From Enterobacter phage CC31, in sequence record NC_014662.1: DNA of 64,000 nucleotides, one strand, 5' to 3'. The notes under the pieces were generated by a model. It had not been told where the DNA came from and searched no databases. It was given only the letters and a program-made list of their open reading frames with translations. How positions within the stretch are numbered: position 1 is the stretch's first letter; each line of letters starts with the position of its first letter. Positions 1,964 through 39,428 of the stretch are shown here, in pieces. A program made the translations under genes and the position numbers.

Positions 1964-2271
1964 ACCTTTTCCTCTAAGAAGTCAGACAGTTTAAAATCTT
2001 TACGGTCCATCAGACCATAGTGAATGTTCTTCAGCGTATCGTACATGTCCCAGTACTTTTCTTTTAGCATATTACCAAATGGTGGAATGTAAAGCTTATC
2101 CCATTTGGCAGCTAACTCACCGTTGCGCAGTTCTCCTGGAACATTTTCAACGATACGTAAAACTTTAGTTGCAACCTCATAATCGGATGGCGGAATCCAT
2201 CCCCAATTATGATGTACTGAACCGTTAATTTCGCCATTCAGCGAAGTAAAAATTGTAGCTGGACAACTCAT
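1960..2271 (-). CDS. Hypothetical protein
   Basis: 103 aa ORF in same-strand overlapping gene chain. Confidence 0.5.
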   Translation of the reverse strand: MSCPATIFTSLNGEINGSVHHNWGWIPPSDYEVATKVLRIVENVPGELRNGELAAKWDKLYIPPFGNMLKEKYWDMYDTLKNIHYGLMDRKDFKLSDFLEEKV

Positions 2272-2630
2272 CGTGTACCTCTAATACCTTGAATAAAGTT
2301 TAAAGCATCTTCACCTGAAGGAACTTCTTTAGACTTAGATTTTCGTTTAAAGAGTTTCCACTCTTTCTTTTGGTCGAAGGTTCCACGTTGAACCTGCCCA
2401 AGATAAAATAACCACTTTCCAATCCAGTAGAATGGAGTTAAAATGCCAGCCATCCAGCCAACAAAAAGTAATTGTTCTCCATAAAGAGGACTAAAGAAGT
2501 ACAATCCCCAATATAATCCAAACCCATTAAGCATTGTGAACATAAAGCAAATAATAATAGTGCCAATAGTCCATCCGAAATTATCATATGAACCAGCATC
2601 TTTGAATCCGCGAAATAATGTTTTAATCAT
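2268..2630 (-). CDS. Small membrane protein, paralog 1 of tandem family
   Basis: 120 aa; two hydrophobic helices; C-terminal NFIQGIRGTR tail. Confidence 0.55.
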   Translation of the reverse strand: MIKTLFRGFKDAGSYDNFGWTIGTIIICFMFTMLNGFGLYWGLYFFSPLYGEQLLFVGWMAGILTPFYWIGKWLFYLGQVQRGTFDQKKEWKLFKRKSKSKEVPSGEDALNFIQGIRGTR

Positions 2631-2965
2631 CGTTTAATCCTGCATCTGGAGATAAAGTTCTCTAAATTTTGTTTGTCGTCGTAAATGGCCTTGGCTTTAG
2701 TAAACAGTTTAACATGAATTTTACAATAGCACCATTTGATAAAAGAAGCTAAAACTATTACCACGAATAATGAGCATAAAGCACTTAGTGGTACAGTGAT
2801 AATCATTTCAGCTACAAAACCGTTGAACCACCAAACTGCGAAATTTGATAAGAAAACAGTAAGTATAATAATTGTCCAACAAACGTTGTCCTCATATTTC
2901 GACTTGAATCTGTCAGCAATTTCTCGTTCAAAATGTCTGATATTCATTTTAGGATTGTATTTCAT
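2627..2965 (-). CDS. Small membrane protein, paralog 2
   Basis: 112 aa; CWTIIILTVF and second hydrophobic helix; C-terminal ENFISRCRIKR. Confidence 0.55.
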   Translation of the reverse strand: MKYNPKMNIRHFEREIADRFKSKYEDNVCWTIIILTVFLSNFAVWWFNGFVAEMIITVPLSALCSLFVVIVLASFIKWCYCKIHVKLFTKAKAIYDDKQNLENFISRCRIKR

Positions 2966-3302
2966 TTTTACCTCGGCATTCCGTAATGAATTCTTCTGAT
3001 TCTCTGATTATTCTATTATGAAGAACTTTAGCATTCTGTTCAGCTAAGCGTTTATTTTCTGGTCGCATCACCCACCAAATAGCAATTTCTTGTGATTTTC
3101 CGTGAGACCAAAGTAGAACTGGAATAGAAAGAAACATTGATACTACAACCCAAATTGGAGCATATACTCCGTCATTAAGTATTAAAGCAGGAACAAAAAT
3201 TAAAAGCACCGCCACTGAACTAAAAGCCAAAAATATTATCATATGTAAAAATTCTGCTTTTGCTGCAAGCTCTCTTAATTCACTTTTTGGTTGATACCCC
3301 AT
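2949..3302 (-). CDS. Small membrane protein, paralog 3
   Basis: 117 aa; two hydrophobic helices; C-terminal EEFITECRGKN. Confidence 0.55.
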   Translation of the reverse strand: MGYQPKSELRELAAKAEFLHMIIFLAFSSVAVLLIFVPALILNDGVYAPIWVVVSMFLSIPVLLWSHGKSQEIAIWWVMRPENKRLAEQNAKVLHNRIIRESEEFITECRGKNEIQS

Positions 3303-3304
3303 GA

Positions 3305-3679
3305 TTATTTCCTCGCTTTACGACAGTCGTTAATGAAGCATTCAAACCGTTCAGCTTTGCTGAGCTTTGATATTATTCTATTTCTTCGCATGCCAATTAA
3401 AATTTGTGCAATAAAATTAACAAATTCACCAATCAGCATAACAATGATACCAAACATTCCCCAACCAAAGCATGTGAATGCAGCCATTGCTCCAGCAGAG
3501 TCAGCTCTTTCTTCTTTTGGAAGATTTGTGATATCAGACCAACCCCAAAATACAATAATTCCGTATAGTGTCAATGCAACGCACCAGCAGAGCTTTTCAT
3601 TTCTGGTCAAAATATATCTGACTTTGGTTGAAAGAGAATCCGTTTTAGCAATTTTAGCTTTAAGTTCAGTTGAATTCAT
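3305..3679 (-). CDS. Small membrane protein, paralog 4
   Basis: 124 aa; CWCVALTLYGIIVFWGW and second helix; C-terminal FECFINDCRKARK. Confidence 0.55.
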   Translation of the reverse strand: MNSTELKAKIAKTDSLSTKVRYILTRNEKLCWCVALTLYGIIVFWGWSDITNLPKEERADSAGAMAAFTCFGWGMFGIIVMLIGEFVNFIAQILIGMRRNRIISKLSKAERFECFINDCRKARK

Positions 3680-3712
3680 TTTATTTTCCTCATAGGGCCC
3701 GAAGGCCCTTTA

Positions 3713-4630
3713 TCATTTGAACGGACGAATCATATCAAAGTTTTGTTTAAAGCGTTTGACATAATCTGTCTTTCCAAGTTTCTTATGCATTGCAACTATC
3801 TTATGGTAGTTTTCCCATGCATATTCACGAAACCAGCCAGATGTAATGCTAGTACAAACTTTTTCCAAAGCGTACATAAATGAACCCGTAGGGTCTGGGT
3901 TGAAATTATTTGGAATTTGATGGCGTTCTAAAGCAAGTACACAAGTTTCTTCATATACACCTGCAAGCTTAAGTTCTTCAGGAAGAGAATCGAACTTCTC
4001 TTTTGAAGTCATTACTTCAGAGCCATCTTTCATGTAGAAAGTATAAGCAGGACGACCAGCTAAAGCCACTGCTTCATGAATTGAATCGTGGTCATAGATG
4101 TAAAAATCATCTTTAAAGAAAGAATCTTTATCTACATCCAGATTAGGATGAGAATATGCTAATGTTTCTTTCTGGCGCAGTTCAGAAATCTTTTTCAGTT
4201 TACTGTCTAAAACAATTCCTTTATTACGCAAGAAACGAATATGATGCATAGTCTTTTGAAAGAAACGAGTGTTCTTCTTGAAACGATGAGACATCTTAAT
4301 TGCTAAGCACATCTCAGGAGTTGCCCAATACATCTGTGAAAGCGCATCATAGCACCCATTAAATACTGCGTAGTGAGCAAGCAGTTCAGATGAACTCTCG
4401 TCGTTATATTCAAAAATGTATGCTTCAAAATAGGTCTCACGACCATTATGCATGCATTTAAAGGCTTGTACATTAGGAGATTGAACTTCGACCTCTGTAC
4501 CATTCATACGGTTTTTGAAATGGAGCCATTCGCCCGGAGACGCGATGAAGTCCCAATCAGAATTCTTAACATCACTGTACTCAATGAGTCCATGGTGATG
4601 TAGAGCTCTAGAACCAATAACCAGCAACAT
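3713..4630 (-). CDS. Hypothetical protein, 305 aa
   Basis: Long ORF; N-terminal VIGSRALHHHG...SDWD loosely resembles a nucleotidyltransferase motif but spacing is non-canonical; C-terminal NFDMIRPFK tail. Confidence 0.5.
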   Translation of the reverse strand: MLLVIGSRALHHHGLIEYSDVKNSDWDFIASPGEWLHFKNRMNGTEVEVQSPNVQAFKCMHNGRETYFEAYIFEYNDESSSELLAHYAVFNGCYDALSQMYWATPEMCLAIKMSHRFKKNTRFFQKTMHHIRFLRNKGIVLDSKLKKISELRQKETLAYSHPNLDVDKDSFFKDDFYIYDHDSIHEAVALAGRPAYTFYMKDGSEVMTSKEKFDSLPEELKLAGVYEETCVLALERHQIPNNFNPDPTGSFMYALEKVCTSITSGWFREYAWENYHKIVAMHKKLGKTDYVKRFKQNFDMIRPFK

Positions 4631-4659
4631 AATATTTTCCTCTTTAGAATGTAGAACTA

Positions 4660-5001
4660 CTATAACACACTTGACTGATGTTGTAAACGGTTCTTTCTAC
4701 ACATTCTGATGAAGTTTTCAATAGGCTCTTCTGGTCTATTGGCTGGATAGCATTTCTTCCAGTTCCACCCTCCCAGCAAGTCAAAGATTTGGTCAGGAAG
4801 AGAATCCCATGGATGTTCTCTTTCGCGGAGTTGAAGCACAATATCACCGGCTGCTTCTCTAATTCCAGTATCAAGTTTTCCATTACAAATCACGACATCC
4901 ATGAGTACTGCAAGACAACAACTATCATGGCTTCCGTATTTGTTCGGATAGTAGAAATAATGGTCAATAATGTAGCAGCAATTACGGTCTAAACCTTTCA
5001 T
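4660..5001 (-). CDS. Hypothetical Cys-rich protein
   Basis: Start chosen at MKGLDRN (ATG 5001..4999 after AGGA); C-terminal ENFIRMCRKNR tail shared with downstream genes. Confidence 0.45.
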   Translation of the reverse strand: MKGLDRNCCYIIDHYFYYPNKYGSHDSCCLAVLMDVVICNGKLDTGIREAAGDIVLQLREREHPWDSLPDQIFDLLGGWNWKKCYPANRPEEPIENFIRMCRKNRLQHQSSVL

Positions 5002-5064
5002 AGTGTTCCTCCAGTGATTCTGGGGAAACTTTTCAGTTTCCCCATATATTACCATTAACAGCTG

Positions 5065-5137
5065 CTAGTGTACCTGGACTCGAACCAGGGAATCGTAGAA
5101 TCAAAATCTACTGCCTTACCAACTTGGCTATACCCCA
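5065..5137 (-). tRNA. tRNA-Gln (UUG), no encoded CCA, acceptor mismatch
   Basis: Manual fold: anticodon arm GTAGA-TTTTGAT-TCTAC, T-arm CCTGG-TTCGAGT-CCAGG; body close to remembered E. coli tRNA-Gln. Confidence 0.7.
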
Positions 5138-5143
5138 ACTGTT

Positions 5144-5220
5144 TGGAGGCGGGTGATGGACTCGAACCATCGCGTAACGGGATATGAACCCGTCATTCTA
5201 CCAACTGAAGTTAACCCGCA
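5144..5220 (-). tRNA. tRNA-Met/Ile2 (CAU)
   Basis: Anticodon arm ACGGG-TTCATAT-CCCGT, T-arm GATGG-TTCGAGT-CCATC, encoded CCA; position 1:72 unpaired. Confidence 0.65.
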
Positions 5221-5230
5221 CTTATCCGGA

Positions 5231-5318
5231 TTCCTGAAGTACAACGGCTGCTTTATGTAGAACTCACCTATTGTGAGGGAACAAAATCACTGGTCCTGGC
5301 ATTAATTATGGACCACCA
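5231..5318 (-). ncRNA. Candidate structured small RNA within tRNA island (not a tRNA)
   Basis: Outer 9-bp stem ttcctgaag/cttcaggaa enclosing two hairpins (GGTCC..GGACC and CTCAC..GTGAG); no T-loop motif. Confidence 0.35.
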
Positions 5319-5340
5319 TCTTCAGGAACTGCCTCGTATT

Positions 5341-5416
5341 TGGCGGACCTAACGGGATTCGAACCCGTGACTCTCACGTGACAGGCGAGTATTTTCACCG
5401 CTGAAACTATAGGTCC
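5341..5416 (-). tRNA. tRNA-Asp (GUC)
   Basis: Perfect cloverleaf: acceptor GGACCTA/TAGGTCC, anticodon arm CTCGC-CTGTCAC-GTGAG, T-arm ACGGG-TTCGAAT-CCCGT, CCA encoded. Confidence 0.8.
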
Positions 5417-5658
5417 AAATTATCTTTCGTGATTATGTGAATCCCTCAGGTTTTCCGGAAAACCGAATAGGCGACAAAAGCTCTCATATACCCGTGCACA
5501 GATATAATCTTTGTTAACTAGTGTCTGAATCAGTATAATCCGAAAGATAACTTTCGGCGCCGTATTTAATTTGAGATATGTAGTTATCGTTGAGGGAACT
5601 CATATTCAGGGATTAACATGCCGACGACTTTGTCAGAACGTCTTCCAACTTCTATATT

Positions 5659-5743
5659 TGGCGGGTCGTGCAGGTATCGAACCTGCCTAGTCATTTCTGA
5701 CACGGATTAACAGTCCGCCGCTTACCCTCTCAGCCAACGACCC
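5659..5743 (-). tRNA. Type-II (long variable arm) tRNA with Asn anticodon GUU
   Basis: 85 nt; acceptor GGGTCGT/ACGACCC, 3-bp D-stem, anticodon arm GCGGA-CTGTTAA-TCCGT, 15-nt variable hairpin GTCA-GAAA-TGAC, T-arm GCAGG-TTCGATA-CCTGC, G73, CCA. Confidence 0.6.
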
Positions 5744-5748
5744 AAATT

Positions 5749-5823
5749 TGGTTCTCCGTAAGAGAATTGAACTCTTCTTTCCGACGTGAAAGGCCGGCGT
5801 CCTAACCGATAGACGAACGGAGA
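5749..5823 (-). tRNA. tRNA-Glu (UUC)
   Basis: Acceptor TCTCCGT/ACGGAGA, anticodon arm CCGGC-CTTTCAC-GTCGG, T-arm AAGAG-TTCAATT-CTCTT, CCA encoded. Confidence 0.7.
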
Positions 5824-5824
5824 T

Positions 5825-5902
5825 TGGTAGGACGTGAGGGAGTTGAACCCATCGACATTCCGATTAAAAGTCGGATGCTCTAACCAACTGAGCTAACGTC
5901 CT
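5825..5902 (-). tRNA. tRNA-Lys (UUU), weak T-stem
   Basis: Acceptor AGGACGT/ACGTCCT, D-arm GCTC-AGTTGGTTA-GAGC, anticodon arm TCCGA-CTTTTAA-TCGGA; T-stem only 3 bp. Confidence 0.65.
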
Positions 5903-5940
5903 GTAGATATTTATAATAACAAAAATATCTTTAAGCAAAT

Positions 5941-6016
5941 TGGTGGGAATAACTGGACTCGAACCAGTGACCTAACGATTATCGGTCGTTTGCTCTACCA
6001 ACTGAGCTATATTCCC
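5941..6016 (-). tRNA. tRNA-Ile (GAU), C at position 33
   Basis: Acceptor GGGAATA/TATTCCC, D-arm GCTC-AGTTGGTA-GAGC, anticodon arm AACGA-CCGATAA-TCGTT, T-arm CACTG-GTTCGAG-TCCAG, CCA. Confidence 0.7.
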
Positions 6017-7146: not shown

Positions 7147-8157
<1,011 letters not shown>

Positions 8158-37865: not shown

Positions 37866-39428
37866 ATGAAAAAGATTAATCCGTTAGTAGAAAAATGGAC
37901 TCCGCTGCTTGAGAACGAAGCACTGCCTGAAATCGTTGGTGCTGGTAAAAAAGCTCTGATTGCAAAAATCATGGAAAACCAGGAATCAGCTATTAAAACT
38001 GAACCTGCATTCCGTGATGAAAAAATCGCTGAAGCATTTGGTTCGTTCCTGACTGAAGCAGAAATTGGTGGTGACCACGGTTATGATGCTCAGAACATCG
38101 CTGCTGGCCAAACCTCTGGTGCAGTAACTCAGATTGGACCAGCTGTTATGGGCATGGTACGTCGTGCAATTCCTAACCTGATTGCTTTCGACATCTGTGG
38201 TGTTCAGCCAATGAGTTCTCCTACCGGTCAGGTATTCGCTCTGCGTGCCGTTTACGGTAAAGACCCTCTGGCTGCTGGTGCTAAAGAAGCATTCCACCCA
38301 ATGTACGCTCCAGATGCAATGTTCTCTGGTCAGGGTGCTGCTGAGAAATTCGCTGCTGTAAAAGCTGCTGACGTTCTGACTGTTGGTACTATCGTAGTTC
38401 ACGATTTCGCTGATGTTGGTCGCGCTTACTTCCAGGTTGCTGAAGGTTTCACAGTAGATGCTGGTGCTACCGATGCTGAAAAACTGGATAAAGCAGTTAA
38501 AGCTGCTGAAGAAGCTGGTCAGCTGGTAGAAATCGCTGAAGGTATGGCTACCTCCGTAGCTGAACTGCAGGAAAACTTCAACGGTTCTACTGATAACCCA
38601 TGGAATGAAATGGGCTTCCGTATCGATAAACAAGTTATCGAAGCTAAATCCCGTCAGCTGAAAGCTCAGTACTCTATTGAACTGGCTCAAGATTTACGTG
38701 CTGTTCACGGTATGGACGCGGATGCTGAACTGTCTGGTATCCTGGCTACCGAAATCATGCTGGAAATCAACCGCGAAGTTGTAGATTGGATTAACTACTC
38801 TGCTCAACTGGGTAAAACCGGTATGACTCAGACTGTTGGTTCTAAAGCTGGTGTATTTGACTTCCAGGACCCAGTAGATATTCGTGGCGCTCGTTGGGCA
38901 GGTGAAAGCTTCAAAGCTCTGCTGTTCCAAATCGACAAAGAAGCTGCTGAAATCGCACGTCAGACTGGTCGTGGTGCTGGTAACTTCATCATCGCTTCTC
39001 GTAACGTAGTTAACGCTCTGGCAGCTGTTGATACTGGCGTTACTCCTGCTGCTCAGGGTCTGGGTCAAGGCTTCAATGCTGATACCACTAAGACTGTGTT
39101 CGCAGGTATTCTGGGCGGTCGTTATAAAGTATACATCGACCAGTACGCTCGTCAGGACTACTTCACCATTGGTTACAAAGGTGCTAACGAGATGGATGCT
39201 GGTATCTACTACGCTCCATACGTTGCTCTGACTCCACTGCGTGGTTCCGACCCTAAAAACTTCCAGCCAGTCATGGGCTTCAAAACCCGTTACGGTATTG
39301 GTATCAACCCGTTTGCTGATAGTGCATCACAGCAGCCGAATGCTCGCATTCAGTCTGGTATGCCTTCTATCGTCAACTCTGTTGGTAAGAACGCGTACTT
39401 CCGTCGCATCTGGGTTAAAGGTCTGTAA
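37866..39428 (+). CDS. 23: gp23 major capsid protein
   Basis: 520 aa; long stretches identical to remembered T4 gp23 (GAVTQIGPAVMGMVRRAIPNLIAFDICGVQPM). Confidence 0.97.
   Translation: MKKINPLVEKWTPLLENEALPEIVGAGKKALIAKIMENQESAIKTEPAFRDEKIAEAFGSFLTEAEIGGDHGYDAQNIAAGQTSGAVTQIGPAVMGMVRRAIPNLIAFDICGVQPMSSPTGQVFALRAVYGKDPLAAGAKEAFHPMYAPDAMFSGQGAAEKFAAVKAADVLTVGTIVVHDFADVGRAYFQVAEGFTVDAGATDAEKLDKAVKAAEEAGQLVEIAEGMATSVAELQENFNGSTDNPWNEMGFRIDKQVIEAKSRQLKAQYSIELAQDLRAVHGMDADAELSGILATEIMLEINREVVDWINYSAQLGKTGMTQTVGSKAGVFDFQDPVDIRGARWAGESFKALLFQIDKEAAEIARQTGRGAGNFIIASRNVVNALAAVDTGVTPAAQGLGQGFNADTTKTVFAGILGGRYKVYIDQYARQDYFTIGYKGANEMDAGIYYAPYVALTPLRGSDPKNFQPVMGFKTRYGIGINPFADSASQQPNARIQSGMPSIVNSVGKNAYFRRIWVKGL

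Follow-up and report, generated by a model that had tools for sequence, protein, structure and literature searches.

A conserved C-terminal tail in the e.x region of phage CC31

We analysed a 64,000-nucleotide (nt) stretch of the genome of Enterobacter phage CC31 (NC_014662.1), hereafter the window, in which several small accessory proteins encoded side by side share a short C-terminal peptide, here called the tail. The phage records in GenBank that lie closest to the window are those of Karamvirus phages, with at most 94.6% identity. All window genes in this cluster are on the minus strand, where the order is seven tRNA genes (5064–6016), A, B, C, D, E, F, G, H, nudE and the lysozyme gene e, the letters A to H being our own and assigned in reading order. 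The slot from the tRNA cluster to nudE is the position of e.2 to e.8 in T4, the best-studied lytic phage; we know of no function for T4 e.2 to e.5. A first-pass annotation of the window had placed the region at the location of the T4 e.x genes, which the comparison of gene order bears out, and re-translation confirmed the open reading frame (ORF) coordinates and translations that it gave.

Taking F-[IV]-x-x-C-R as the strict motif, with Phe at position 0, we found it in 5 of the 217 window ORFs of at least 50 amino acids, in each case within the last 30 residues. Four of these are genes A, C, D and E (Table 1), whose orthologs keep the motif in 5/5, 5/5, 5/5 and 8/8 cases, respectively; gene D has Ser, not a hydrophobic residue, at position −3. 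The fifth ORF (37986–38690, minus strand) lies antisense to the major capsid gene and is hence a spurious match. Gene F encodes a variant: throughout its family (14 homologs) the tail reads F-[IA]-x-x-[ILV]-[RK], no homolog having Cys, and the hydrophobic residue is shifted from −3 to −2. It falls outside the window's eight best matches to a tail profile hidden Markov model (HMM), the lowest of which scores 4.4 bits.

Six consecutive genes had originally been counted as sharing the tail. Four of them carry it in strict form and F carries it as a family-wide variant, whereas gene B has to be removed from the set. The NFDMIRPFK with which B ends reads NEHMILPF, NQHLIKPF or similar in eight ortholog tails, with no Cys-Arg, and by this comparison its 'NF' end is a chance resemblance. 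Nor does gene A end with the motif, as had been stated: 11 further residues (KNRLQHQSSVL) come after IENFIRMCR. For this gene, a start at 5001 with a GGAGG Shine-Dalgarno sequence was preferred over one at 5055, which would abut the tRNA-Gln gene at 5064.

Table 1 Genes and tail segments of the cluster, with their positions in the 64,000-nt window
Feature	Position	Strand	Basis
Gene A: 113-amino-acid soluble carrier, phrog_29231	4660..5001	-	ORF, Shine-Dalgarno sequence, PHROG match
Gene B: 305 amino acids, DUF7277 + DUF7275; inside the cluster, without tail	3713..4630	-	Pfam
Gene C: 124-amino-acid two-helix membrane carrier, phrog_23997, predicted N-in/C-in	3305..3679	-	ORF, PHROG, hydropathy
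Gene D: 117-amino-acid two-helix membrane carrier, phrog_27909, starts M-G-Y-Q-P	2949..3302	-	ORF, PHROG
Gene E: 112-amino-acid two-helix membrane carrier, phrog_16360	2627..2965	-	ORF, PHROG, hhalign
Gene F: 120-amino-acid membrane protein, phrog_9350, variant tail	2268..2630	-	ORF, PHROG, family alignment
Tail core of A: I-E-N-F-I-R-M-C-R	4696..4722	-	Translation; tail HMM 21.2 bits
Tail core of C: F-E-C-F-I-N-D-C-R	3320..3346	-	Translation; tail HMM 18.4 bits
Tail core of D: S-E-E-F-I-T-E-C-R	2973..2999	-	Translation; tail HMM 16.5 bits
Tail core of E: L-E-N-F-I-S-R-C-R	2639..2665	-	Translation; tail HMM 18.5 bits
Variant tail of F: A-L-N-F-I-Q-G-I-R, Ile for Cys	2280..2306	-	Translation; family alignment

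The tail is confined to one region of T4-like genomes

Six-frame ORFs (n = 5577) were collected from 50 related loci, fetched around homologs of nudE or gene B. The strict motif was present in 151 of these ORFs, always on the coding strand and confined to the final 28 residues, with neither an interior coding-strand occurrence nor an antisense C-terminal one. After removal of duplicates, 96 distinct ORFs carried the motif, compared with a mean of 1.3 (maximum 6) in 200 residue shuffles. The tail HMM gave 162 matches of at least 8 bits, every one a coding-strand tail. No match above 7 bits was found in T4 1–50 kb or 120–169 kb, elsewhere in the 64-kb window or, for 18 loci, in the 10 kb downstream of nudE, indicating that the tail is confined to this region. 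We define tail-bearing proteins by the presence of [FW]-[IVL]-x-x-C-[RK] no further than ~28 residues from the C-terminus, preceded by a hydrophobic residue at −3 and kept in orthologs.

The T4 genes at this position belong to the same set, which the first-pass annotation did not cover: the tail is also found on T4 e.3, e.5 and full-length e.2, with a variant on e.4, and it spans three unrelated N-terminal classes. T4 e.3 ends in EFVIDCRKIK and e.5 in KFVKECREYVKAITIPSK (tail KFVKECREY), while the variant tail of e.4 is KFVKESRCKSQS (KFVKESRC). The e.2 tail lies in an unannotated 51-amino-acid ORF between nudE and e.2, which is the 3′ part of e.2 and ends in NNFITECRKLK. The reference e.2 of T4 has 102 amino acids, and close relatives have an intact e.2 of 162 amino acids, at least 80% of which is covered in 525 of 534 phage records. 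Compared with two such relatives (loci L016 and L017, 9519–10007), the T4 reference (NC_000866 67472–67960; locus L001, 1973–2461) lacks 1 nt in an A-run and has 1 extra, compensating nt 77 nt further on; either the gene is truly split or the reference contains an old sequencing error.

Scanning 1.84 billion representative proteins with a hairpin-plus-tail profile in HMMER returned just 27 clusters. Twenty-five are phage-like (P0018–P0041 and the fragment P0044) and all of these terminate in the tail; the other two, a repetitive 501-amino-acid protein (P0042) and a PsiF-like repeat protein (P0043), are not relatives of the hairpin. Members include a protein of Escherichia phage EcS1 and two metagenomic proteins in T4-like gene contexts. 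Soluble and membrane-bound carriers tend to occur together: approximately 45 of 48 tail-bearing loci encode at least one of each, and two metagenomic phages, though very divergent, likewise combine e.2-like, e.5-like and A-like carriers.

Selection acts on the peptide

Codon usage, the counts of synonymous and non-synonymous differences and the variable spacing to the next start codon all agree that selection acts on the peptide rather than on the RNA, as the first-pass annotation had judged more likely. The invariant positions are encoded by TTT or TTC, by ATT, ATC or ATA, by GTT, GTG or GTA, by TGT or TGC and by all six Arg codons. Within families, the five motif codons (−3, 0, +1, +4 and +5) show 64 synonymous and 3 non-synonymous differences, compared with 1390 and 1117 in the rest of the same genes, which gives a non-synonymous to synonymous ratio of 0.05 in the motif versus 0.80 elsewhere. 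The synonymous rate per codon is not reduced (0.18 in the motif versus 0.13 elsewhere). Families E, C, D and A pose no ascertainment problem in this comparison because every member has the motif. Similarity confined to ribosome-binding-site nucleotides had been named beforehand as the outcome that would overturn a peptide-level signal; what we found was undiminished synonymous change in the motif and constraint on the encoded residues.

Overlap with translation signals does occur at some gene boundaries, as previously noted: the purine-rich motif codons also serve as Shine-Dalgarno sequence at D-to-E, E-to-F and F-to-G. More generally, the next start lies 7–17 nt past the Cys codon in more than half of the contexts, and GAR (Glu), AGR or CGA-GGT (Arg-Gly) then double as Shine-Dalgarno sequence. 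This overlap may bias the residues after Cys, yet it cannot explain F, I/V or C. Between the Cys codon and the next start codon lie 7 to 83 nt, and between the Arg codon and the next start, within the window, 7 to 65 nt, in rough agreement with the 0 to about 60 nt originally given. A constraint at the nucleotide level, in which the conserved codons supply the next gene's Shine-Dalgarno or translational-coupling sequence, or else a junction at which cassettes are shuffled by recombination, would fit these short distances. We give it next to no weight, as CGT and CGC are among the Arg codons in use, TTY, ATH and TGY cannot make a Shine-Dalgarno sequence, the synonymous rate in the motif is no lower than elsewhere with non-synonymous change nearly nil, and the motif is just as intact where the next start is 28–83 nt away. 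Codon usage, the two kinds of difference counts and the variable distance together rule out the RNA or ribosome-binding-site explanation.

The tail is the best-conserved part of its carriers

The tail module spans ~9–17 residues at or near the C-terminus. Its consensus, derived from 69 distinct tails, is a K/E-rich stretch followed by [LFIV]-[END]-x-F-[IV]-x-[EQD]-C-R-[KGR] and then by basic residues, with a hydrophobic residue at −3 in 66 of the 69. Phe at 0 and Ile or Val at +1 hold by construction in the tail set, and the other positions were counted with the remaining motif fixed. Counted in the same way, that is, with the other positions fixed, position 0 is Phe in 90 of 97 tails and Trp in 6. 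Position +4 is Cys in 90 of 96, and position +5 is Arg in 90 of 104 and Lys in 13. Positions −1, +2, +3 and +6 are variable; within genomes, these variable positions displayed no genome-specific covariation pattern when judged by eye and without quantification.

Family alignments identify the tail as the most strongly conserved part of each carrier. Among 19 e.2 homologs, conservation of at least 95% is reached only by one Cys and the tail F, C and R; among 20 e.5 homologs, only by a P, an N and the F...C-R of the tail. The invariant residues of the A superfamily are M1, one Trp and, again, the tail F, C and R. In the AlphaFold2 model of gene A, a domain (residues 1–81) with a predicted local distance difference test score (pLDDT) of 75–89 is followed by a linker (86–91) below 50 and by a helix (93–109) of ~60 that contains the motif. 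T4 e.5 is predicted to have the same domain–linker–helix plan, with the motif helix at 181–196.

The tail sits on three unrelated classes of protein

PHROG assignments and hhalign comparisons place the tail on three unrelated classes of protein body. The first consists of two-helix hairpins and includes T4 e.2 (phrog_2203, annotated 'membrane protein'), e.3, e.4, window genes C, D, E and F, and several others. A-type proteins form the second, with a soluble alpha/beta domain of ~95–115 amino acids, and homologous small soluble carriers are found in other phages. The third, e.5-like class has a soluble domain of ~200 amino acids (phrog_2607, 13418, 22749 and 8788). In PHROGs, all carriers fall into separate families of unknown function, those of T4 e.2, e.3, e.4 and e.5 being phrog_2203, 2330, 2604 and 2607. 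Pfam, NCBIfam and PADLOC models had no matches to A, C, D, E, F, T4 e.3 or e.5, gene B alone matching a family, and T4 e.2 and e.4 gave only far-sub-threshold noise against NCBIfam (cardiolipin synthase, SA1362 and HemY). The N-terminal domain of e.2 is Pfam PF26896 (Phage_T4_Y06M) in precomputed matches. Fold searches were uninformative.

The soluble carriers have no signal peptides. For the hairpins, K+R counts in the N-terminus, loop and C-terminus are 7/0/10 in E and 7/2/10 in C, and this distribution, taken with hydropathy under the positive-inside rule, indicates that both hairpin ends are cytoplasmic. The first-pass annotation had described a common two-helix layout for C, D, E and F. 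The layout fits hydropathy and the positive-inside rule in C, D and E, the D hairpin having been read by eye because a crude 19-residue scan misplaced its segment boundaries; in F the second helix was likewise read by eye, the scan finding only one.

The companion claim, that these four genes are tandem paralogs, stands in part: E is homologous to the e.2 membrane module and C moderately linked to it, while D and F were not matched over the helices. Gene E matches phrog_2203 (E 3.9e-5, residues 25–109) and aligns with the e.2 family in hhalign with a probability of 96% over 94 columns. With the tails trimmed, the alignment is still colinear (54 columns, E 4e-4), and by these profile comparisons E is a homolog of the T4 e.2 membrane module. 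Gene C is probably another: its match to phrog_2203 is weak (E 0.002, residues 21–121), and hhalign gave 90% over 88 columns, 86% over 22 columns with more sequences and E 0.04 with the tails trimmed. Most hairpin pairs fell below significance once the tails were trimmed. Gene D aligned with the e.2 family in its tail (14 columns) and N-terminal MGYQP (7 columns, probability 62%) only; its GYQP start matches a boundary motif of e.2 homologs, which suggests but does not prove relatedness. Gene F reached at most 18% against the e.2 family, and no homology to C, D or E was detectable beyond architecture and the variant tail.

In full-length e.2 proteins, G-Y-Q-P separates the N-terminal soluble domain from the membrane module. 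That domain (W..LDD..G....VDW..C) is absent from C, D, E and F, which have 112–124 amino acids and begin at or after the G-Y-Q-P boundary. Short hairpin genes begin exactly there: D with MGYQPK, E with MKYNPK, and the metagenomic P0025 and P0033 with MSGYQP. The shared boundary suggests that the membrane module has repeatedly been detached from, or joined to, the e.2 N-terminal domain.

Possible roles of the tail

With confidence a little short of even, we propose that the tail is a docking helix that binds, in the cytoplasm, either a common partner or the other carriers. It would form a short helix with the conserved positions −3, 0, +1, +4 and +5 on one face and the variable residues on the other, held in the cytoplasm by a flexible or charged linker. 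The fixed face would contact either a shared partner of host or phage origin, at one common surface, or other carriers, through their tails or domains, and soluble and membrane-anchored effector bodies would thereby be gathered at one site on the cytoplasmic side of the inner membrane. The family probably expanded as an e.2-like membrane module was duplicated in tandem and the tail became fused to new N-terminal domains; its physiological role could lie in host takeover, exclusion or counter-defence. If there is a common partner, the tail would provide a phage example of a fixed address peptide with interchangeable effector domains and would explain how the hypervariable region evolves fast without loss of function.

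Several observations weigh against such docking. AlphaFold confidence in the tail helices is modest (pLDDT 54–64), and the distance from tail to membrane varies from ~17 to 38 residues. Whole families swap Cys for Val, Ile, Leu or Ser (F, e.4 and the family L8_131), and a subgroup of e.3 has Lys for Arg, so that the interface allows some variation and Cys chemistry is dispensable in some of the families. All tail genes are missing from two loci that have gene B, which makes the tail set dispensable and hence accessory. The co-occurrence of soluble and membrane-bound carriers could, moreover, merely reflect linkage within one hypervariable region.

We also considered a more specific proposal, which we regard as doubtful: that the tail is a viral address tag by which changing effector bodies are all docked to a single conserved hub where the inner membrane faces the cytoplasm. 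A divisome, protease or defence component of the host might be such a hub, with the tail imitating the natural ligand of that component. Were this so, effector domains could be swapped freely in the hypervariable region while the delivery address was kept.

Alternatively, the tail might bind lipid rather than protein, as an amphipathic targeting helix lying flat on the cytoplasmic leaflet in the manner of the C-terminal helices of MinD and FtsA; A and e.5 would then be recruited to the inner membrane, and the hairpins would have their C-termini held down on it. The tail is indeed C-terminal, helical and flanked by basic residues, has a hydrophobic face, occurs on soluble and membrane proteins that are found together, and in some families tolerates Val, Ile or Leu for Cys. 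We nevertheless consider lipid binding unlikely, since net charge over the 14-residue core is −2 to +1, as against +3 to +4 for reference sequences of MinD and FtsA, acidic or amide residues are conserved at −2, −1 and +3, and the near-invariant F, C and R, in a helix with approximately four hydrophobic positions only, amount to much tighter conservation than membrane binding would call for. Another possibility is a degron or quality-control tag read by a host or phage protease or adaptor (FtsH, ClpXP, Lon): the tail is exposed at the C-terminus after a flexible linker, in many cases has a basic end following it, and is common to co-transcribed early genes. Through it, these early proteins would be cleared, or would compete for the protease, at shared times. 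Proteins anchored in the membrane are suitable FtsH substrates, and lambda CIII acts on FtsH through an amphipathic helix. Against this stand the 0–15 residues between the motif and the true C-terminus, a variable distance that is unusual for C-terminal degrons, and the fact that the tail is not known to resemble any established degradation tag; a degron alone also does not explain why the tail is the best-conserved feature of every carrier. This explanation, too, we think improbable.

The high frequency of Cys at +4 and Arg at +5, with several tails per genome, raises the question of whether Cys-Arg is a reactive or ligand site, for instance for a metal or disulfide bridge between tails or for ADP-ribosylation of Arg by T4 Alt or Mod. 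Entire families carry Ile, Val, Leu or Ser for Cys with the rest of the tail kept, however, and each tail has a single Cys in a reducing cytoplasm, which makes a chemical role of this kind quite improbable. Finally, the tail could be no more than the conserved last helix of one old family, passively kept through duplications and domain swaps without a shared function. Gene E is, and C probably is, homologous to the e.2 module, and weak colinear hhalign links connect a web of hairpin families. The tail is also present on two soluble folds for which homology with a two-helix hairpin is out of the question, though, and passive retention does not give a ratio of 0.05 beside 0.80 in the same genes. 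On balance, an inherited end-piece is very unlikely, and the docking helix is our best reading.

Relation to known systems

Searches for literature on the functions of the e.x genes or on the tail motif found nothing relevant, with tools that cover only part of the literature, and the motif appears to be previously undescribed. What is new is the sequence of the tail, its carriers and their clustering; short C-terminal docking or targeting peptides on modular proteins are already known in kind. A single, strongly selected 9-residue peptide thus ties T4 e.2–e.5 to many 'hypothetical' proteins in hundreds of T4-like genomes, and it turns a dozen unrelated orphan families into one testable question, the binding partner of the tail, which can be addressed directly in T4.

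The CC31 genes resemble T4 e.2–e.5 in occupying the same slot between nudE and the tRNA genes and in bearing the same tail, and the hairpin-plus-tail plan recurs in e.2, e.3 and e.4. They differ in belonging to distinct PHROG families and, for C, D and E, in the missing N-terminal soluble domain of e.2; in addition, CC31 has no e.5-like gene, whereas the A-type small soluble carrier is present in CC31 and not in T4.

C-terminal docking peptides include the ends of T4 gp43, gp33 and gp55 that bind the gp45 clamp, the conserved C-terminal peptide of FtsZ and the tails of SSB. Like these, the tail is a short conserved, helix-forming C-terminus behind a flexible linker on unrelated proteins, with a hydrophobic i, i+3, i+4 face; unlike them, it is often carried by membrane-anchored proteins and all of its carriers lie in one hypervariable cluster, and there is no sequence match. 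The MinD and FtsA helices are likewise C-terminal and helical, with basic flanks, on soluble proteins that act at the inner membrane, but the core of the phage tail is near-neutral with conserved acidic residues and has strict identity at F, C and R.

PeSLs are reported to be non-coding promoter and stem-loop DNA motifs of the hyperplastic regions of T4-like phages (PMC2839356, PMC4122927). They too are conserved, recur where genes meet in a hypervariable region of this kind and have been invoked for modular shuffling, whereas the tail is coding and conserved in amino acids rather than nucleotides. A term search of the 2014 PeSL paper returned no C-terminal peptide motif.

A resemblance outside phages was seen in P0043, a secreted bacterial protein of 350 amino acids from a metagenome (JGI) with four tandem repeats, each ending R-K-[DA]-F-I-T-E-C-R. 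It has a sub-threshold match to PsiF_repeat (PF07769) and, unlike the phage tails, a signal peptide and two Cys per repeat of ~34 amino acids. The window proteins, which have a single Cys per tail and no signal peptide, did not match PF07769 at E values up to 1. The resemblance is most likely due to chance or convergence, and kinship of the tail with PsiF repeats was rejected given the sub-threshold match and the different compartment and Cys count.

Neighbouring genes and further sequence signatures

Gene B is 55–100% identical across phages and far better conserved than the neighbouring genes. It is present in the two loci that have no tail genes, and a sequence search of PDB found no relative of it. 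The 33-nt gap between B and C contains a GGGCC-TTCG-GGCCC tetraloop hairpin (3694–3709) with no T-run on the transcribed strand, which may be an RNA stabiliser or processing mark rather than a terminator. Just upstream of B lies a sigma-70-like promoter match (TTTACA, 17 nt, TG-n-TATAGT; 4659–4687, minus strand), identified by consensus only. This promoter-like site overlaps the codons of the gene A post-motif residues RLQHQSSVL and may account for the gene A frame running on beyond the tail. An impression gained by eye that T4 e.6 is a PspA-like hub receives no support from Pfam and was set aside.

A second C-terminal signature occurs in the same region of relatives, where small paralogs, two or three per genome, end exactly in G-x-W-[VIL]-S-S-S-x-x-C or W-x-x-S-S-C. 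Examples are found at 5293–5613 and 5607–5891 of locus L008, 7436–7696 and 7730–7942 of L041, and 5666–5899 and 5908–6219 of L002. CC31 is without these paralogs, and its tRNA genes occupy their place. Upstream of the tRNA cluster, the window encodes a homolog of T4 57B (7452–7910, minus strand). Its counterpart in the related contig L053 (343–801) carries the Pfam label Acb1 and adjoins an IPI_T4 gene, and the tail genes thus adjoin genes with counter-defence Pfam labels.

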